A stretch of DNA of 8,258 nt from positions 1 through 8,258 of IMG/VR virus record IMGVR_UViG_2609459832_000001; one strand, written 5' to 3'. Under the pieces are notes generated by a model, which made no database searches, was not told the origin of the DNA, and was given only the letters and a program-made list of their open reading frames with translations. Position 1 is the first letter of the stretch. Every line of letters begins with the position of its first letter. The translations under genes were made by a program, and so were the position numbers. Positions 1-6,905 of this stretch are shown piece by piece. Source of the DNA: a virus. Lineage: Monodnaviria > Loebvirae > Hofneiviricota > Faserviricetes > Tubulavirales > Inoviridae.

Positions 1-215
1 AAAAAAGAAAGCGTCTTATAGCCAGGGAAAGTTATAAGACGCTCCGGAAAAGCCAGGGAATTATAGGAGGCACGTCTCAACCAATGTTATGTCCGTCTCA
101 GCATGTACCATGCCCACTGCTACATAACAGGGTGCGAAAATCATAACGAGTAAAACATTACCGCCGATAACACATCAGGGCCTGTGTTTGAAAATTCCGG
201 CTCAAAAACGGCCTG
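1..215. repeat. Copy A of a ~260-bp repeat unit; a diverged second copy (B) lies at 7953-8208. Shared blocks include aaagaaa(g/a)cg(t/c)cttata..gggaaagttataa at the left end and ttgaaaattccggctcaaaa(a/g)acggcct at the right end.
   Basis: Direct comparison of 1-215 with 7953-8208: conserved blocks at both ends, a 10-bp-stem hairpin at 11-42 (gcgtcttata / tataagacgc), and two CGTCTCA motifs 21 bp apart (73-79, 94-100; in copy B 8032-8038, 8053-8059). Confidence 0.7.
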
Positions 216-436
216 TCAGTCATCAATTTCATCAAACGACTTCATCACTGACTGTCCGACTCACGTCTTGCGCCGTTCGTCTCGGTGACTGCCCGCTAAA
301 AGGCGGTCTGGCAGGCGGCGCGCTGCGCTGTTTCCTGCTGCTCTGTCATCTCTCCCCGGTTTCGGCGGGCTGACATCTGCGTCACATGAAACTTCATCAT
401 GCCGCCTTACATGTCCTGACGGACATCATCACACAC

Positions 437-1657
437 TCAGACCCGCCGGGCCTGAAGAACGACGATGATATCGGTTTTCGCACGTTCATCAGAGTCTGAA
501 CCAAACACATCCGGCAGAAATGAAAGCCCTGTCCGCGCCTTTGATGTCTTGTTCTCCGCCAGTCCGCCCAGCACAATGATATCACCGTCATTCAGACTCA
601 CCGACGTGGACACCTCGCGCTTTATCAGCGTTGGCGTGTTATTCACCCCCGTATCCGTTTTTGCAAAGTTACTCAGCTGCTGAACGATATCCAGACCTAT
701 CACATCCTGCGTCACGGTGGGTTTTACCCGAAAAATAGCCCCGCTGCTGCGGTATTCCACGGACTGCACCGGAACCTTATCCTGCCATGACACCGATGAC
801 AGAACCGGCACATCAGACCCCACGCTGAAAACCGCCTCCTTACCGGAGATAACGCGCAGACGTGGCGAACTGACCACCTGAAAACGGCTGTCTGTCCTGA
901 ATAACTCATACATTGCATCAACAGACCCCGTGCTGAGACGAATAAAGTTATCCAGCCCCGATGCGCTGCTCATGGTGATACTGAAACGCCCGGACAAAAG
1001 CTCTGCAGCCAGCGCCAGACCTGAACCGTTACGCTCACTGGTCTGGACCTCAAACACATACCCGGCAACCGAAACCTCCTGTGCCCTGACGTCAATCTGC
1101 GGCAGAAGCTGCCGGACAAGCTCCACTTCCCGGGCCGTTCCCCGGAACACAAACACATCCCCGGATGCACTGATGAACCGGGTACCACTGCTGACCGCCT
1201 GCCATGTCTGCTCACCGTTTGCCCCCTGAACCGGCTGTTGTGCGGCCGGAAGCTGACCCAGACCGGAAAGCGCCTGATGCAGATACTCCACTGTCCGGTA
1301 ACGGGGCGTGTAAACAAGGGATTTCAGCGGCTCCTCTGGTGCGGCAGGTGTATGACTGTAAATATAATCAACGCCCTTTTTACGGCTTATCCTGATATTC
1401 ATATTACCGAGATAACGGGTAATAAATTCCCGTTCATCGATATCCGGTGAAATATGCAGCGTGACGGCCCGCGGGTCATTGACCAGTTCAGGGGCCAGCA
1501 TGAACGGTGTTTTCAGGACTTCCGTCCAGAGCAGCGTCACCGCATCAGGCAGGCTCATGCGGTTAATATCCAGTTCCGTCCCGGCTGAAAACGACGGCAG
1601 CGGGAATAACAGCGCCATTGCAGGCAGCACCGGGAGAAGTAATTTTCTGATATTCAT
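437..1657 (-). CDS. Filamentous-phage secretin (pIV-like outer-membrane export channel)
   Basis: 406-aa ORF with an N-terminal signal-like segment (MNIRKLLLPVLPAMALLFPLPSFSA) and a C-terminal secretin-like region (VSLNDGDIIVLGGL...SFLPDVFGSDSDERAKTDIIVVLQARRV). It is the last gene of an Ff-order cluster, starting 10 nt after the gI stop. ATG at 1657-1655, TGA at 439-437. Confidence 0.85.
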   Translation of the reverse strand: MNIRKLLLPVLPAMALLFPLPSFSAGTELDINRMSLPDAVTLLWTEVLKTPFMLAPELVNDPRAVTLHISPDIDEREFITRYLGNMNIRISRKKGVDYIYSHTPAAPEEPLKSLVYTPRYRTVEYLHQALSGLGQLPAAQQPVQGANGEQTWQAVSSGTRFISASGDVFVFRGTAREVELVRQLLPQIDVRAQEVSVAGYVFEVQTSERNGSGLALAAELLSGRFSITMSSASGLDNFIRLSTGSVDAMYELFRTDSRFQVVSSPRLRVISGKEAVFSVGSDVPVLSSVSWQDKVPVQSVEYRSSGAIFRVKPTVTQDVIGLDIVQQLSNFAKTDTGVNNTPTLIKREVSTSVSLNDGDIIVLGGLAENKTSKARTGLSFLPDVFGSDSDERAKTDIIVVLQARRV

Positions 1658-1666
1658 ATTCTGTCC

Positions 1667-2923
1667 CTATGGTGTGGTGAGAGAAACGGACATCCCCCCG
1701 GCACCGCTGCCGGACGAACGCGACGGGGAAGGTTCACTGCCTGACCCGCTGTGAAACGTGATGTGTTCGCCATCCAGTTCCAGTACAGTAAGCAGCCCTT
1801 CATACGGCAGTTCACTGCGCACAAGCCGCGTGACGTTGCTGTTACTGCGCAGAATAAAAACCCCCTGCCCGTTACCGTCACGCATATGACCGGAAAGCCG
1901 CCAGACACGGGAAAGCGGCAGTTCTGCCGGAGATGCGACCTGTGGTACAGGCGGCGCTTTTTCAGTGGTGATTACCTGTGGTGGTGCCTGCATGACCGTT
2001 GCAGCCGGCTCATCAGGTGTGCCGGAGAAAAAATCCAGCACAAGACGTCCCCAGAACCAGAAAAACAGGCCACCCACCACAACGGACAACAGTTTTTTAC
2101 GGCGCGCCTGTTGCTGCTCCTTTCGTTCCTCTGCCGTGAAGGTCTGCGACTCCCCTTTCTCCTGCCGCTCACGCAGCCGCCGGAACTGCCGGAGGGTTCT
2201 GCCGGGCAACAGAGAATACATGGCGCGCATATCACAGACCCGCTGATGCTCACCCGTTCCGAGCAGTTCCATTCCGTCATCAAACACCATGTTCGTCGGA
2301 TGGATACCGTAAAAGGACGGCGCATAAAAAACGCGGGATTCATTGGGACGGGAATTCGCCCGGGGAACACCGATATAAATTTTTGCCGAAATCAGGTGCG
2401 GCAGAAGCCCTTTCCGGCTGCCCGTATCGCCAAACTTATCCGGCATGCAGAGTTCCAGAATATCGGACACGACCGGGACACGAATACGATCAAGACGACG
2501 ACAGCGGACAATCAGCTCCCCCGTGGATTTAAATATTTTGCTGTCAACGGCGGATTCATCCTGCACCTGAATATAAACATCCCAGCCCAGTTTCCCGGAC
2601 TGTACAAACCATTTGTAATATTCCAGGTATTCCCGGCCGGAAGATGTGCCGTTAAGCCATGTTCCGACCTCATCCAGAAATAACGCACCAAACCGCTCCT
2701 TCTCATTTTCATCACAACCACGCCCCAGCGCCCAGAAATCTTCAGGACGAGGACGGGCCGGAAGCACGGTCACCGGATGCGATGAAGCCGGGTCCATTTT
2801 TTCAGTATCAAGCGGGTAATTTGCCGCAATTCTGTGTCCGCGACGGTAAAACTGTTTTGCCACCATGGAGCAGAACAGCCCCTTCCCGTTGCGCATTTTT
2901 CCTGTCACCCAGTAAACAGCCAT
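1667..2923 (-). CDS. Assembly ATPase pI / Zot-like protein, with a single predicted TM segment (LLSVVVGGLFFWFWGRLVLDFF) and a C-terminal extension
   Basis: The N-terminus MAVYWVTGKMRNGKGL matches recalled M13 pI MAVYFVTGKLGSGKTL. Conserved blocks: ALFLDEVGTWL (Walker B-like, M13 LLVLDECGTWF), KLGWDVYIQVQD (M13 KLGWDIIFLVQD), RCRRLDRIRVP (M13 YCRRLDRITLP). ATG at 2923-2921 follows the gVI stop closely. Confidence 0.9.
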   Translation of the reverse strand: MAVYWVTGKMRNGKGLFCSMVAKQFYRRGHRIAANYPLDTEKMDPASSHPVTVLPARPRPEDFWALGRGCDENEKERFGALFLDEVGTWLNGTSSGREYLEYYKWFVQSGKLGWDVYIQVQDESAVDSKIFKSTGELIVRCRRLDRIRVPVVSDILELCMPDKFGDTGSRKGLLPHLISAKIYIGVPRANSRPNESRVFYAPSFYGIHPTNMVFDDGMELLGTGEHQRVCDMRAMYSLLPGRTLRQFRRLRERQEKGESQTFTAEERKEQQQARRKKLLSVVVGGLFFWFWGRLVLDFFSGTPDEPAATVMQAPPQVITTEKAPPVPQVASPAELPLSRVWRLSGHMRDGNGQGVFILRSNSNVTRLVRSELPYEGLLTVLELDGEHITFHSGSGSEPSPSRSSGSGAGGMSVSLTTP

Positions 2924-2930
2924 AACACCC

Positions 2931-3290
2931 CTACTTCATTAAACCCAGTGTCAGTTTTCCGAGAATGAAAGCCTTCACCCGGAAGGCAAAATACAGCGAC
3001 CATGCGCCGGTAATAATATTCAGGCAGACCGGAAGGTTATCCGGAAACAGGCTGGACACGCTGATCCAGACCGGATGCGTGAATACCGGAGAGGTCAGTA
3101 TCAGGGAAGAAAACTTTTCATTCACGAAGGAAATAAAAACGCTGTAAAACCCATACCAGCCCCCGACCGTGGTCAGCGCAATCACGGACTTGAGGAGAAA
3201 AAAACGCAGGAGGCACCGGAAAATGAACGGCACCAGAAATATCATCATATCCTTAAAAAAGACGGTCAGTCCCATAAAAACAGCTGGCAT
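2931..3290 (-). CDS. Minor coat protein pVI-like (hydrophobic membrane protein)
   Basis: 119-aa very hydrophobic ORF starting MP, like M13 pVI. Its ATG (3290-3288) lies 2 nt after the gIII stop (TAAATATG), and its position between gIII and gI is the Ff position of gVI. Confidence 0.7.
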   Translation of the reverse strand: MPAVFMGLTVFFKDMMIFLVPFIFRCLLRFFLLKSVIALTTVGGWYGFYSVFISFVNEKFSSLILTSPVFTHPVWISVSSLFPDNLPVCLNIITGAWSLYFAFRVKAFILGKLTLGLMK

Positions 3291-3292
3291 AT

Positions 3293-4618
3293 TTACCTAC
3301 CGGATAATGATTTATCAACCAGGATGACTAATGACACTGCGGTGATGACATAAATAAAAAAGCGAATAACCTCCCGCAGATAACCGTCATAAATACGACA
3401 GACACCTTCCGTGGAGAGATTAAAGGGCATTTCCTCCCCCCCGAAAGGCCGGAATGAAAAACTTAAATCCAGTGGCACACAGACATCCCTGTTATTGCCG
3501 AAGAAGCCCTGAGGAATAATGCCGGAAAAATTAAGCACAGGCACATAATCTTCAATCAGGGGAATAAGTTCCTGAATCCGGTCCTGTACGCCCTGCTCCA
3601 CTGAACTTATACCGTTCTCAATAATCCCCTGCATAGTGCTGTTAAACTGCGCCTGAGACGAAGAGTAGTTTTTATCCGGCTCTGTCAGTGCGCCAAATTT
3701 TTCATCAATGCTGTGTAAATATTTCACCTGCCTTTCTGTCATATAATCCATGGTAACAAGGGTTTTATTCTGAAGTTCAATGTAGCTGCTATGAAAACTG
3801 TCTATTTTGTCTCCGATGGCAGGCAGTCCGGCATTCAGCAGATAATATATTTTTCTTCCCCACTCATCAGAAAGACCGTCACCCCCGTTTCCGGTGTTAT
3901 TATCATTGCCGTCACTCCCGGTATTTCCACCACCGGAATTATTACCGCCCTCGCTGCCGGAATTATTATCTTCACTACCGTTGTTATCTTCCTCATTACC
4001 GTTGTCAGGAACAATTTTCCCGTCCTCAATTTTATAACCTTCCCTTAAATAACAGGTGCTTTTATAAAGGCTCTGCCAGCCGGAACCATTGGGAGTGCAG
4101 GAGTAATATTTTGCGTGAGCGCGCAACTCAGATAAAGGCATAGTTTCCCGCGGGGGATAATATCCTGAAAACGAACCACAGATTAACAGCGGATTATTAT
4201 CACACTCCTGCCTCCTCAGTGTATCCGCAAGTTCAAGCAAATAGACAGCAGAAACCTGACCGGATACAGCGTTATCATTATCATCACCGGAACTGTTGTC
4301 CCCGTTGCCGCCGCTGTTATCCCCGTCACCGCCATCACCTTCCGAAGGCTCATAAGCTGCCACAGGGATCCAGTCAGCGGCGACATCACCTGTTTCACTG
4401 CCAACAATCACACCTGTCGCCCTATAAATACAGCCATCCAGAACGGCATACCATGTATTATCACTGCGAAACGCTCCGGAAAGTGTGACCCCCTGCAGCG
4501 CCGGGCGGGAAATACAGACCTCATCAGCTTCAGTTAATTTAAAAGGCACAAATGTTCTTGTGAATGATTCAGCAGATGAAAAGAACGGAAGAAATAAAAG
4601 CAGAAATAACAGCCGCAT
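3293..4618 (-). CDS. Adsorption / minor coat protein pIII-like: signal peptide, N-terminal domains separated by Gly/Asp/Asn/Ser-rich linkers, C-terminal membrane anchor
   Basis: 441 aa. Signal MRLLFLLLFLPFFSSAESF (M13 ...PFYSHSAETV). Block GCIYRATGVIVGSETGDVAADWIPVAAYEPSEGDGG resembles recalled M13 pIII N1 CLWNATGVVVCTGDETQCYGTWVPIGLAIPENEGGGS. Two low-complexity linkers and a C-terminal hydrophobic anchor (FFIYVITAVSLVILV). SD GAGG lies upstream of the ATG at 4618. Confidence 0.85.
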   Translation of the reverse strand: MRLLFLLLFLPFFSSAESFTRTFVPFKLTEADEVCISRPALQGVTLSGAFRSDNTWYAVLDGCIYRATGVIVGSETGDVAADWIPVAAYEPSEGDGGDGDNSGGNGDNSSGDDNDNAVSGQVSAVYLLELADTLRRQECDNNPLLICGSFSGYYPPRETMPLSELRAHAKYYSCTPNGSGWQSLYKSTCYLREGYKIEDGKIVPDNGNEEDNNGSEDNNSGSEGGNNSGGGNTGSDGNDNNTGNGGDGLSDEWGRKIYYLLNAGLPAIGDKIDSFHSSYIELQNKTLVTMDYMTERQVKYLHSIDEKFGALTEPDKNYSSSQAQFNSTMQGIIENGISSVEQGVQDRIQELIPLIEDYVPVLNFSGIIPQGFFGNNRDVCVPLDLSFSFRPFGGEEMPFNLSTEGVCRIYDGYLREVIRFFIYVITAVSLVILVDKSLSGR

Positions 4619-4631
4619 AATGACCTCTGAT

Positions 4632-4652
4632 AAAAAAGGGGCGCACGGCCCC
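4632..4652 (-). terminator. Rho-independent terminator between gVIII and gIII (stem GGGGC/GCCCC, loop CGUGC, followed by U6 on the minus-strand transcript)
   Basis: Plus strand 4632-4652 is aaaaaaggggcgcacggcccc; the reverse complement gives GGGGCCGTGCGCCCCTTTTTT immediately downstream of the gVIII stop (4676-4674). Ff phages have a strong terminator at the same place. Confidence 0.7.
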
Positions 4653-4673
4653 TGTATTATTAATTAAACAGCA

Positions 4674-4949
4674 TCAGGAAGATGCCATTCTGAAGAGGGA
4701 TTTAACTACGCGGAAACCAATCATTAAAGAAACGCCAAAGCCCAGTAAAAGAAATGCTGCGGTTCCCACCACGCCCAGCGTTGACAAAATGGAGTTCACC
4801 ACCGGGTCAATCATTGCTTTACTGATAACTGCCTGTCCGGGGGTATAACTCACATCATCAGCCAGAACAGGACCGGACGCCAGCATCAGGGAAGATGCAA
4901 TGACCAGAGGTTTTTTTACGAACGTAACTGCTTTTTCACGAACAGACAT
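4674..4949 (-). CDS. Major coat protein pVIII-like precursor (signal peptide plus ~61-aa mature protein)
   Basis: The ORF-track ORF 4674..5051 is trimmed here to the internal ATG at 4949-4947, which is preceded by SD-like CAGGAG. Product MSVREKAVTFVKKPLVIASSLMLASGPVLA|DDVSYTPGQ... has a signal peptide with an A-x-A-type cleavage site, an acidic mature N-terminus, a hydrophobic core and a basic C-terminus (RVVKSLFR). This is typical inovirus major-coat architecture at the Ff gVIII position. Confidence 0.75.
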   Translation of the reverse strand: MSVREKAVTFVKKPLVIASSLMLASGPVLADDVSYTPGQAVISKAMIDPVVNSILSTLGVVGTAAFLLLGFGVSLMIGFRVVKSLFRMASS

Positions 4950-4969
4950 AATATATAACTCCTGTATTA

Positions 4970-5128
4970 TTACAAAAAAGATGAAAAAAGTGTTTTCATC
5001 AGGGAAAACACATACCCGAAGCCAAAACCGGCAAGCCAGCTGATGGCCCATATACCAAAAAGTGCAACAAGCGGAGGATAAGAACCCACGCCGGATATTG
5101 TCACAAGAAAATTTGCCTCAGAAAGCAT
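4970..5128 (-). CDS. Small hydrophobic protein, pIX-like minor coat candidate (52 aa: MLSEANFLVTISGVGSYPPLVALFGIWAISWLAGFGFGYVFSLMKTLFSSFL)
   Basis: Hand-translated and absent from the ORF track (under 60 aa). Its ATG (5128-5126) overlaps the tandem stop of the upstream small ORF (TAATAATG), which suggests translational coupling. Hydrophobic; sits in the Ff gIX position between the gVII-like ORF and gVIII. Confidence 0.5.
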   Translation of the reverse strand: MLSEANFLVTISGVGSYPPLVALFGIWAISWLAGFGFGYVFSLMKTLFSSFL

Positions 5129-5130
5129 TA

Positions 5131-5232
5131 TTAACGCCTTCCCGTAATGACTCCACCAATAAAAGCCAGTGAAAATATCAGCACTGGCACAGCGCCAAAG
5201 AGAATAAGAATAAAAAATTCCGCTACTGACAT
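5131..5232 (-). CDS. Small hydrophobic protein, pVII-like minor coat candidate (33 aa: MSVAEFFILILFGAVPVLIFSLAFIGGVITGRR)
   Basis: Hand-translated and absent from the ORF track. Same length (33 aa) and same hydrophobic-core-plus-basic-end pattern as recalled M13 pVII (MEQVADFDTIYQAMIQISVVLCFALGIIAGGQR). Located immediately downstream of gV as in Ff. Confidence 0.6.
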   Translation of the reverse strand: MSVAEFFILILFGAVPVLIFSLAFIGGVITGRR

Positions 5233-5308
5233 AATCTCATTAAGGCGAATGATAATTACAGTTTTCTTTTCTGGGAGGAATTGTGTTTTTACGGAATTCC
5301 ATAACAAA

Positions 5309-5581
5309 TCACTTCTCTGAAATAGGAGTTAAAACAATTTTGCCAACGCGTAATTTTTGAAAGTCACCAACATAAATACTAGATGGATGCAACTCATATA
5401 AACCAGCCGCATATGGAGCCTGGCCTTGTTCAAGAGGAATTTTAAATAGTTGAGGGTAATCCCCACCGAGGAAAATATAACCAGACTGTTCAGATATCGT
5501 ATATGGTTTACCAGTGCTCTTAGAAACACCACTACGAGTATCTGCAACAGCTTGAGAAGGTTTAATTTCAATCTTAATCAT
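5309..5581 (-). CDS. ssDNA-binding protein, gene V protein homolog
   Basis: The 90-aa product MIKIEIKPSQAVADTRSGVSKSTGKPYTISEQSGYIFLGGDYPQLFKIPLEQGQAPYAAGLYELHPSSIYVGDF... aligns along its length with recalled M13 gVp MIKVEIKPSQAQFTTRSGVSRQGKPYSLNEQLCYVDLGNEYPVLVKITLDEGQPAYAPGLYTVHLSSFKVGQF.... SD AGGTG lies upstream of the ATG at 5581. Confidence 0.9.
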   Translation of the reverse strand: MIKIEIKPSQAVADTRSGVSKSTGKPYTISEQSGYIFLGGDYPQLFKIPLEQGQAPYAAGLYELHPSSIYVGDFQKLRVGKIVLTPISEK

Positions 5582-5594
5582 AATACACCTAATG

Positions 5595-6710
5595 TTAAGC
5601 TACACGTAAATAAGATGGCTTTATATACCAAGAAGGAATAACACAATCCGAAACAGTTATTTCTCTTGTTTGTTTCACAACAACAGGAGAGAATTTAGAG
5701 ATATTACATTTTTGAGCAATATCAATACCAATCTTCCTTAACCTTGCTCGATGTGTCTGGACTTGCTTTTTATTTAAATCAAAAATATGGCCGTGAAACC
5801 ATTGAATTGCATACATGGCTGTAGTATTGGCAGCACGAGTAGTGTCAACAACACCACGACTAATAAGATGTTCACTAATAGTTTCAAAGTCCATAGCATT
5901 CACCGATAACTTTTCATCAAGCTCAAGAAATTCAGAATGTAACTTATTTAACAAAGAGTAATCAGAAAGTCCCCAATAGCACATGGATTTTTTTTGAAGA
6001 AAACGAGACTTTAATTTTTGCTCAAACCTGACAATGCCGTTGTCCTTGCAGTAATTAATGACATCCATTATATAATTAAATTCTTTAGAATTCTCTGAGA
6101 ATTTATTTTTGATTTTCGCAAGGCTATGCAACTCAAGCTCATGAGCTTTGTTATATACTGTTGGGTATATAAGATTGACATTGCCTTTTTTTGAAAGCCA
6201 GTCAACGGATTTCCCATTGGAATGCAACCGTGGAATACTATTCCTGTAAGGTTGAGTAGAAAGACCTGATATATAATCATCCTCATTCCCCTTCCCTACT
6301 GATTTGTTTGATGTTATATGCAGTTCTTTAATTAAAGCACCATCAGTAATCAAATGAGCTTTTTCATTCTCTTTCGATTGTCCAGGCATTAACTTTGTAC
6401 ACTTGGTAAATAAAGGTAATTTCAGTTCAGTTAGAATCTGATTAAATACCATGACACAAGCATCTACAGTCGGAAACCCAAAAAGATTATCAAGACGTCC
6501 CCAGCGGGACGGATTTCCAGTCATTTTTAACACTGAACCACGGATCGAGATTGAAACAACATCACAGAAAGAGCCACGATGCTGGAAGGTTGGTTGAGAT
6601 AATGCGCTGGCCTCCCCGCTTTCAAGATGTATACGCTGATAAGCTACATCGCTCAGTATCGGCAACTGATAGCCGAAATCCTGTTCGATAGTTAACCAGT
6701 CGTAAAACAT
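5595..6710 (-). CDS. Replication initiation protein (gpII-like rolling-circle initiator)
   Basis: The large ORF immediately upstream of gV, in the Ff gII position. Internal block VRFEQKLKSRFLQKKSM resembles recalled M13 gpII VRFEARIKTRYLKSFGL. The ORF track begins at a TTG (6722); the first ATG is at 6710-6708 (MFYDWLTIEQ...) with GAGAG upstream, and that start is used here. Confidence 0.85.
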   Translation of the reverse strand: MFYDWLTIEQDFGYQLPILSDVAYQRIHLESGEASALSQPTFQHRGSFCDVVSISIRGSVLKMTGNPSRWGRLDNLFGFPTVDACVMVFNQILTELKLPLFTKCTKLMPGQSKENEKAHLITDGALIKELHITSNKSVGKGNEDDYISGLSTQPYRNSIPRLHSNGKSVDWLSKKGNVNLIYPTVYNKAHELELHSLAKIKNKFSENSKEFNYIMDVINYCKDNGIVRFEQKLKSRFLQKKSMCYWGLSDYSLLNKLHSEFLELDEKLSVNAMDFETISEHLISRGVVDTTRAANTTAMYAIQWFHGHIFDLNKKQVQTHRARLRKIGIDIAQKCNISKFSPVVVKQTREITVSDCVIPSWYIKPSYLRVA

Positions 6711-6763
6711 AGAATCTCTCAATCATTCAAGATGAGCCGCAAGGCTCAACACTGACACTTAAC

Positions 6764-6828
6764 GGTATCAATAATGATATTATCAAACATAACAGACGTC
6801 AATGGTATTGATACTAACAAATATCAAA
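6764..6828. promoter_or_regulatory. Operator-like cluster of TATCA/TGATA half-sites in the divergent gII / HTH-regulator intergenic region
   Basis: TATCA at 6766, 6781 and 6822; TGATA at 6775 and 6809. These form the palindromes TATCAATAATGATA (6766-6779) and TGATATTATCA (6775-6785), and the near-palindrome GTATTGATAC (6805-6814). The location between two divergent genes is typical of repressor operators. Confidence 0.45.
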
Positions 6829-6905
6829 ACTGACCCTACAGATTCAGCTATGAAAAATGGAGGTTAAAATTAAGACTTTGCAATCAGCATGAGAAGGCAG
6901 CAGAT

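Follow-up and report, generated by a model that had tools for sequence, protein, structure and literature searches.

The closest described counterparts of the system considered here are the pI assembly ATPases of the filamentous Ff phages and their relatives (M13/fd/f1, If1, and IKe). The subject is gene I of a filamentous prophage (Inoviridae) in IMG/VR record IMGVR_UViG_2609459832_000001, of which positions 1 to 8,258 were analyzed; this whole 8,258-nucleotide stretch is called the window. The gene I product is a member of the pI/Zot family and has Gly where the Walker A motif (P-loop) usually ends in Ser or Thr. The favored reading, with a probability of roughly 0.6, is that gene I encodes the inner-membrane assembly ATPase of an intact, dif-integrating, Ff-like Escherichia coli prophage, and that its P-loop, GKMRNGKG, is a selected lineage variant and no lesion.

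The M13 protein, also written g1p, is the reference for this family. Its Walker B residues D88 and E89 are essential for assembly, and K14 is likewise a required Walker residue (PMC5408679). Q126 is also essential, and docking and dynamics list S12, G13, K14, T15, Q126, R148, H175, T206, and K207 as contacts of adenosine triphosphate (ATP) (bioRxiv 10.1101/2022.09.21.508815). These two studies contain no T15 mutant (T15 is only a docking contact in the latter), and R115 was not examined in the mutagenesis of either.

CTXphi-type Zot proteins of Vibrio cholerae and Vibrio parahaemolyticus have a deviant Walker A motif, GxxxxYK[S/T] (PMC7541967; bioRxiv 10.1101/2022.09.21.508815). They resemble the window protein as pI/Zot members of dif-integrating prophages with an off-consensus P-loop. 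The CTX-type proteins carry L10P, G13Y, V86F, and Q126P (M13 numbering), whereas window pI has M10, keeps G13 and the Gln, and shares only the Phe at position 86. Lacking L10P, G13Y, and Q126P, it is not a CTXphi-type deviant Zot. The GKG form is mentioned in neither of these two papers.

Nucleoside monophosphate (NMP) kinases, e.g., adenylate kinase (GxxGxGKGT), do have Gly after the P-loop Lys. In these enzymes, water is the fourth Mg2+ ligand, and Ser/Thr was lost several times independently (PMC9599734). They are homologous to window pI in the P-loop fold alone, are phosphotransferases and not motor ATPases, and have no Walker B Asp-Glu. Window pI, in contrast, reads GKGL and not GKGT, has the Walker B Asp-Glu, and has RecA, Zot, and B204 as fold neighbors instead of kinases. 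Its P-loop is not that of an NMP kinase, and the comparison is an analogy for Mg2+ coordination only.

UPphi901 and its relatives share with the window phage an Enterobacterales host range, tandem dif integration, and an Ff-like gene order (PMC7307601). The pI of UPphi901 is 66% identical to IKe pI and 30% identical to window pI, and its P-loop is the canonical GKLGSGKT. The window phage belongs to a different group; the loci found with the published PCR (polymerase chain reaction) primer have an IKe-like GKT pI. Literature searched for Zot Walker A variants yielded only the GxxxxYK[S/T] form and the M13 mutagenesis of K14, D88, and E89. In the literature searched, neither the GKG form nor the covariation of positions 11 and 115 (see below) was described; this is not proof of absence.

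The features of gene I that bear on its P-loop are as follows.

1667-2923, minus strand: gene I, pI/Zot-family assembly ATPase, 418 residues (open reading frame, Pfam Zot, PHROG 1675, similarity to M13 pI)
2879-2902, minus strand: Walker A motif or P-loop, G8-K-M-R-N-G-K-G15 (translation and conservation in homologues)
2879-2881, minus strand: Gly15 codon GGG, directly after the P-loop lysine, where the consensus has Ser/Thr

The product begins MAVYWVTGKMRNGKGL. The reverse complement of 2879-2923 reads ATG GCT GTT TAC TGG GTG ACA GGA AAA ATG CGC AAC GGG AAG GGG, or MAVYWVTGKMRNGKG, and this codon-level reading bears out an earlier note on this DNA that had claimed a non-canonical Walker A, GKMRNGKG. 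G8, G13, and K14 of the consensus GxxxxGK[S/T] are present, and the last position is Gly. The range that the note gave, 2878-2923, has the right location; 2878 is one surplus base, the first of the Leu16 codon. The residue-for-residue match that it reported to the N-terminus of M13 pI (MAVYFVTGKLGSGKTL) is equally sound. BLASTP gives 33% identity over 228 residues (E 4e-30), the first 45 of them ungapped, so that Gly15 is aligned exactly with M13 Thr15. The note was correct on Gly15 and left Arg11 of the same loop unmentioned; M13 and 241 of 259 relatives have Gly there.

Gly15 is shared by every close homologue. All 16 independent records of the window gene (isolate genomes, an ENA metagenome, Logan assemblies, IMG/VR, and NCBI) have GKMRNGKG with an identical codon, which disposes of the suggestion of a sequencing variant. 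The 90%-identity cluster of window pI holds 374 member sequences. A search over 5.8 billion proteins found 73 homologues, and the nearest 60 with an N-terminus were analyzed. Gly15 is present in 60 of 60, from 98% down to ~32% identity, and Ser or Thr is limited to the most distant of the 73. Sources of these nearest homologues include Escherichia coli, Edwardsiella tarda, Salmonella enterica, Escherichia albertii, V. cholerae, Vibrio mimicus, Vibrio fluvialis, and V. parahaemolyticus. Alignment to related prophages, the check proposed in the earlier note, thus finds the Gly fixed and not unique to the window.

The residues G8, G13, K14, G15, N35, D84, E85, W114, and Q121 are invariant in the same 60 proteins, and R143 (M13 R148) is kept in at least 90% of aligned clade members. 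All four Gly codons are used at position 15 across GKG loci (GGC 23, GGG 19, GGT 5, GGA 4). Between the ATPase domains of the window and Edwardsiella genes, the proportion of nonsynonymous differences (pN) is 0.10 and that of synonymous differences (pS) is 0.70, which is saturated, and omega is at most ~0.05-0.1. The C-terminal part is less constrained, with a pN of 0.28 in the same comparison. Judged from these substitutions, the ATPase domain of gene I is under strong purifying selection.

Gly at this position extends well beyond the close relatives. An exhaustive search with HMMER, in which residues 1-250 were compared with 1.84 billion cluster representatives, returned 482 proteins at E <= 0.001. 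The best 150 of the 482 comprise 59 GKT, 56 GKS, 26 GKG, and 3 GKN proteins and 5 that are truncated or unreadable. Asn after the P-loop Lys (GKLGxGKN) was seen in three representative pI proteins, P0145, P0183, and P0203. A scan of one genome per species gave a large Oxalobacteraceae group with GKLGSGKGK (Janthinobacterium, Massilia, Duganella, Rugamonas, and others) as well as GKG examples in Comamonas and Azospira.

A neighbor-joining tree was made from 259 non-identical N-domains with the tested columns masked; it is approximate at such divergence. On this tree, the window falls in an all-Gly clade of 71 members; the Gly state further occupies an Oxalobacteraceae clade of 22 members and seven small clades. 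The Gly and non-Gly states change 12 times, against ~82 times for shuffled labels, and a nearest-neighbor analysis agrees with the tree. Gly after the P-loop Lys appears to have arisen about nine times in pI. Canonical pI has 24 positions with >=95% conservation, and the betaproteobacterial GKG proteins match it at all 24, so the replacement of Ser/Thr by Gly is possible without other visible change, and no second-site change that is always paired with Gly15 was found. The switches at C70/E74, H176, and N211 occur in the main GKG clade alone and are therefore inseparable from shared ancestry.

The following features of the window protein are hallmarks of its family.

2669-2686, minus strand: Walker B motif ALFLDE, residues 80-85 (D84, E85), equivalent to M13 D88/E89, with the hhhhDE pattern
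2561-2563, minus strand: Gln121, where the strand following Walker B ends; counterpart of M13 Q126 (alignment)
2495-2497, minus strand: Arg143, retained, equivalent to M13 R148 (alignment)
2027-2092, minus strand: predicted transmembrane segment LLSVVVGGLFFWFWGRLVLDFF, residues 278-299, after a basic stretch (hydropathy maximum)

The Pfam Zot model PF05707 scores 38.8 bits on residues 2-148 (cut-off 20.3). PHROG 1675, 'morphogenesis (protein I of M13)', matches at E 2.9e-36, and PHROG 197 at E 6.1e-36. No NCBIfam model matched window pI, and a sequence search of the PDB gave insignificant matches alone (E >= 0.1). An AlphaFold2 (AF2) model of residues 1-250 (pLDDT 88.8, pTM 0.85) has a RecA/Zot-like P-loop fold. 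Through this model, Foldseek reached RecA, 2R2A (the Zot N-domain of Neisseria meningitidis), and the STIV2 B204 packaging NTPase (nucleoside triphosphatase) as the best PDB folds. No aligned relative departs from the Walker B Asp and Glu. Window pI belongs to the pI/Zot family on the grounds of its profile matches, fold, Walker B motif, sensor Gln, transmembrane segment, and synteny. Its sole textbook failure is the last Walker A position, a failure seen in about one-sixth of the family representatives sampled.

The layout is an N-terminal P-loop domain, one predicted transmembrane segment, and a C-terminal part that is presumably periplasmic, with the ATPase domain in the cytoplasm. The transmembrane segment of M13 pI spans residues 254-270 (PMC5408679). 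The sequence D231-M232-R233 (2225-2233) hardly varies in the main GKG clade, and most canonical pI proteins lack it. Met232, ~45 residues before the transmembrane segment, is a candidate internal start for pXI, and no clear ribosome-binding site was seen upstream of it. Gene I lies between gene VI and the gene IV secretin, and the order is the same in the Salmonella and Edwardsiella relatives.

The likeness to the Ff proteins covers a collinear N-terminus, Lys14, the Walker B Asp-Glu, equivalents of Q126 and R148, one transmembrane segment, the gene order VI-I-IV, and a secretin of the phage's own. Compared with M13 pI, the window protein has Gly for Thr15, Arg for Gly11, Gly for R115, Ile for H175, Asn for K207, Phe for V86, and Val for C90. 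It is also ~70 residues longer than Ff pI, and the window phage is temperate, with a helix-turn-helix (HTH) regulator and dif-like sites.

Mg2+ normally takes its fourth ligand from the hydroxyl of the Ser/Thr that follows the P-loop lysine. Gly appears to have replaced the hydroxyl residue at the base of a large gammaproteobacterial pI clade, and likewise in about eight other pI lineages. The presumed catalytic core of K14, Walker B D84/E85, sensor Gln121, and Arg143 is retained. Window pI most likely still binds and hydrolyzes Mg-ATP and would thereby power the assembly of virions and their extrusion via the pIV secretin. Water would stand in for the lost hydroxyl as Mg2+ ligand, as in the GKG nucleoside monophosphate kinases. 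The pocket of the window sub-lineage is remodeled further, with H175 moved by two residues, K207 replaced by Asn, and R115 exchanged for an Arg at P-loop position 11.

The exchange of R115 involves two positions.

2891-2893, minus strand: Arg11 codon CGC, fourth P-loop position, Gly in M13 and most relatives
2594-2596, minus strand: Gly110 in QSGKLGWD, the position of a family-wide Arg (M13 R115 in HARKLGWD)

Positions 11 and 110 covary without exception in the 259 non-identical pI sequences: 241 have G11/R110, 18 have R11/G110, and none is mixed. On the masked tree, Arg11/Gly110 is found in seven separate clades, two on GKG backgrounds and five on GKT or GKS. The nearest relatives (67-69% identity) of V. 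cholerae P0054 and of the Rhodocyclales locus L040 have the canonical pair. No third column of the 259-sequence alignment tracks the swap. This covariation is strong evidence that positions 11 and 110 share one function. In the AF2 model, residue 110 is part of the loop that joins helix 97-108 to the sensor strand 114-120, at the far end of the sheet from the P-loop. The distance from the P-loop favors a cross-subunit contact of the canonical Arg. From the model we infer that this Arg probably reaches the nucleotide site of the neighboring subunit, and that the swap would put a guanidinium into the loop of its own subunit. The P-loops of GBP1 and atlastin (GxxRxGKS) also have an Arg at the fourth position, like R11. 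These are unrelated dynamin-like GTPases (guanosine triphosphatases), and the likeness is only a lead for the role of R11.

Two more sites in the nucleotide pocket differ from M13.

2390-2398, minus strand: H176-L-I178, with Ile at a family-wide His (M13 H175) and a new His two residues before (alignment)
2291-2296, minus strand: T210-N211, equivalent to M13 T206-K207, Lys to Asn (alignment)

Four of the M13 ATP contacts are thus altered in window pI (S12 to Asn, T15 to Gly, H175 to Ile, and K207 to Asn), and G13, K14, Q126, R148, and T206 are retained. The His shift and the K207N change are typical of the whole 71-member GKG clade. The most derived sub-lineage is the window's own, made up of the E. 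coli, Edwardsiella, and Salmonella 446-residue proteins. A bolder proposal is entertained as tentative and somewhat doubtful. It states that GKG pI proteins are fully active, water-attacking motor ATPases without the Ser/Thr hydroxyl. In the same proposal, the seven-fold change from G11/R115 to R11/G115 would mean that a catalytic arginine has moved repeatedly. Its original place would be the loop preceding the sensor strand, as a possible finger for the neighboring subunit, and its new place the P-loop of its own subunit.

GKG phages occur in settings that point to active elements. A Salmonella relative has the full gene set with a secretin, both in the chromosome and on a stand-alone 8,108-nt contig (L016) in which no terminal overlap, a sign of circularity, was found. 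The V. cholerae GKG relative (GCA_019092965.1 and GCA_019092835.1; L017-L019) is a prophage of 6.2 kb, present as two or three tandem copies that directly adjoin rtxA. It has no secretin, and a second element with Rep_trans and DUF1293 genes is located upstream. E. coli JNE23-001 carries two tandem prophage copies. A 7,480-nt contig of Janthinobacterium sp. MDB2-8 encodes a full-length GKG pI (GKLGSGKGK) and has a coverage of 4404 in its title. A 568-kb chromosomal contig of the same assembly is labeled with a coverage of 45.9, ~96x lower, and carries an 87%-identical integrated relative (L072, L074). These values suggest a high-copy episomal inovirus beside a related prophage. A metagenomic contig of 7,401 nt, whose 35-nt terminal repeat is of the kind seen in circular assemblies, encodes a GKG pI as well.

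The remaining features of the window are those of an Ff-like prophage.

437-1657, minus strand: gene IV, outer-membrane secretin, partner of pI (Pfam Secretin, E 1.8e-25)
2931-3290, minus strand: gene VI-like minor coat protein, 119 residues (position between genes III and I as in Ff; PHROG 27651, function unknown)
3293-4618, minus strand: gene III, attachment protein, 441 residues (Pfam Phage_Coat_A)
4674-4949, minus strand: gene VIII-like major coat precursor, 91 residues, from an internal Met of a 125-residue open reading frame (PHROG 17608, residues 35-125)
5309-5581, minus strand: gene V, single-stranded DNA-binding protein (Pfam Phage_DNA_bind, E 3.9e-24)
5595-6722, minus strand: gene II, replication initiator (Pfam G2P_X_C and Phage_CRI; DNA 78% identical to phage If1)
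6906-7394, plus strand: divergent HTH (Cro/C1-type) regulator (Pfam HTH_3)
7795-7915, minus strand: attP-like element with two inverted dif-like sites (single-strand folding, dG -43.7 kcal/mol, z -9.9)

All phage genes of the window are intact and form a complete Ff-like set of genes II, V, VIII, III, VI, I, and IV. A 91-residue gene is also called at the gene VIII position in related records. The dif-like arms are at 7807-7819 (plus) and 7888-7900 (minus), with an inner hairpin at 7832-7870. One dif-like site is AGTGCGCACAATG, and on the opposite strand the other reads AGTGCGCATAATG...TTATGTTGAAA. Single-stranded DNA of the gene sense folds into one long hairpin in which the XerC-like and XerD-like arms are paired, with a 6-nt bulge in the central region. 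The attP of CTXphi has the same long-hairpin architecture with paired XerC- and XerD-like arms. The folding suggests XerCD-mediated integration of the single-stranded genome. The E. coli dif site, exact or with up to three mismatches, was not found in the window, where the shorter dif-like arms are present.

Positions 7955-8258 repeat positions 1-300 at ~82-88% identity, with a spacing of ~7,950-7,990 nt. As the right end repeats the left, the window enters a second, diverged tandem element, and the phage unit is ~8 kb. Matches to the window at 80-99% identity are found in 97 of 5426 complete E. coli genomes, five of which have at least 80% of the window in one place. Enterotoxigenic E. coli (ETEC) E24377A is among them, and their sources are pigs, cattle, humans, milk, and urine. 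Strains UTME-13 and UTAK-3 carry ~96% of the window at ~99% identity. Matching genomes have a median of two such places, and plasmids account for 23 of all places. A literature search on the filamentous prophage of E24377A found nothing relevant. Related records are flanked by a fimbrial gene cluster, which we take to adjoin the E. coli terminus.

The window phage could not be equated with a characterized phage. Megablast against 50,697 phage records gave 14% coverage, from the replication module of If1. The replication and regulation module at 5659-7454 has 78% DNA identity to If1. In many E. coli strains, the shared part amounts to only ~72% of the window, and the annotated replication proteins are different ones. 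These patterns indicate exchange of modules between filamentous phages. The IMG/VR relatives are prophage predictions from isolate genomes and hence provide no virome evidence.

Several points weigh against an active assembly ATPase. The Ser/Thr after the lysine has been called strictly conserved in P-loop hydrolases of nucleoside triphosphates, its replacement reportedly abolishes activity, and its natural loss in kinases has been argued to suppress hydrolysis by water (PMC9599734). At the 24 highly conserved canonical positions, the window sub-lineage agrees in 18 and has lost the other six: G11, R97, R104, R115, Q134, and H175 (M13 numbering). Phe is present at the M13 V86 position (Phe82, Leu83; 2675-2680), and V86F inactivates M13 g1p (bioRxiv 10.1101/2022.09.21.508815). 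Val86 (2666-2668) is at the position of C90, which is essential in M13 (PMC5408679). Phe is, however, the majority residue at the V86 position, in 49 of 60 clade proteins, so effects of the V86 and C90 type are context-dependent. Both gene I copies of JNE23-001 (L005 8380-9638 and 16822-18080) have a 2-nt insertion at ~codon 241, which leaves an ATPase-domain open reading frame of 317 residues and a C-terminal one of 108 residues, near the expected pXI start. The gene contexts and coverage show replication and spread, not virion assembly as such. No GKG protein was found among the isolated phages of the phage collection, and no clade member has been isolated or shown to make virions. The pI homologues found there by tblastn are <=33% identical, and all those translated are GK[ST]. 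GKT or GKS is found in the isolated phages M13, If1, IKe, fs2, Vaf1, a Vibrio cyclitrophicus phage, and Ralstonia NP-2014. UPphi901, the single E. coli dif-prophage shown to shed particles and DNase-protected DNA (PMC7307601), has GKT.

The main rival to an active ATPase, though unlikely, holds that pI of this clade binds ATP and hydrolyzes it very slowly or never. Its role would be that of a nucleotide-gated scaffold or switch serving the pI/pXI/pIV channel, with the energy for extrusion coming mainly from the proton-motive force or host factors. The block to hydrolysis by water argued for NMP kinases (PMC9599734) is consistent with such a role, as are the absence of the near-invariant M13 residues R97, R104, R115, Q134, and H175 from the window lineage and the Phe that inactivates M13. 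A binding-only role would also conserve the P-loop glycines and Lys. However, E85, Gln121, and Arg143 are catalytic rather than binding residues and are kept across the clade, and the betaproteobacterial GKG proteins depart from canonical pI at essentially one conserved position. More improbable still is an inactive ATPase whose prophage relies on the canonical pI of another filamentous phage in the same host, a dependence like that proposed for CTXphi-type Zot. Vibrio g1p homologues often have inactivating Walker changes, which are suggested to be complemented by co-infecting phages (bioRxiv 10.1101/2022.09.21.508815). The second, diverged element at the window end and the median of two places in matching E. 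coli genomes would fit such dependence. A gene rescued in trans should drift, but the ATPase domain is the most constrained part of pI, and Gly15 is invariant with synonymous turnover. Most GKG phages also keep a full morphogenesis set with their own secretin; the V. cholerae member has none.

Decay comes next in this order of falling probability, and it has little chance of being correct. The earlier note had raised it as an assembly-defective (domesticated or cryptic) prophage, of which Gly15 would be one symptom. The frameshifted gene I in both tandem copies of a single strain, JNE23-001, the lack so far of virion evidence for the clade, and the differences at several M13-essential residues speak for it. 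Against it, every phage gene of the window is intact, and Gly15 is fixed in 60 homologues with codon turnover and purifying selection, over a divergence that saturates synonymous sites. The same motif recurs in about nine separate pI lineages. Diverse E. coli lineages and other genera carry the element, which also occurs on plasmids and in tandem arrays. Last is an error of sequencing or assembly, or a private variant of one record, which is negligible given the motif and codon common to 16 independent NCBI, ENA, Logan, and IMG/VR records and the 374-member cluster. What survives from the earlier note is an unusual ATPase, in the form of a selected and recurrent variant within a known family. 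It had reasoned that GKG in homologues from productive phages would mark a tolerated family variant; the sharing among homologues holds, and the productivity of their phages is supported only indirectly, by the high-copy Janthinobacterium contig and the 7,401-nt contig with a terminal repeat.

Only two catalytic residues of Walker NTPases are regarded as universally required, and the Ser/Thr after the P-loop Lys is one of them. The natural exceptions known so far are kinases, which have to avoid hydrolysis (PMC9599734). In pI, a presumed hydrolytic motor appears to have given up this residue about nine times, and the change was kept under strong selection. If GKG pI proteins are indeed fully active, they would be a natural counter-example to the indispensability of Ser/Thr for hydrolysis by P-loop NTPases. 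The family is also a natural test set, with Thr, Ser, Gly, and Asn at one position and an existing M13 complementation assay (PMC5408679). The covariation of Arg11 and Gly110 singles out M13 R115. For the pI/Zot family, the usual Walker A consensus is too narrow. Screens that call pI/Zot proteins 'inactive' by GxxxxGK[S/T] would wrongly dismiss about one-sixth of Ff-like inovirus lineages, including prophages of E. coli (ETEC E24377A), Salmonella, and V. cholerae.

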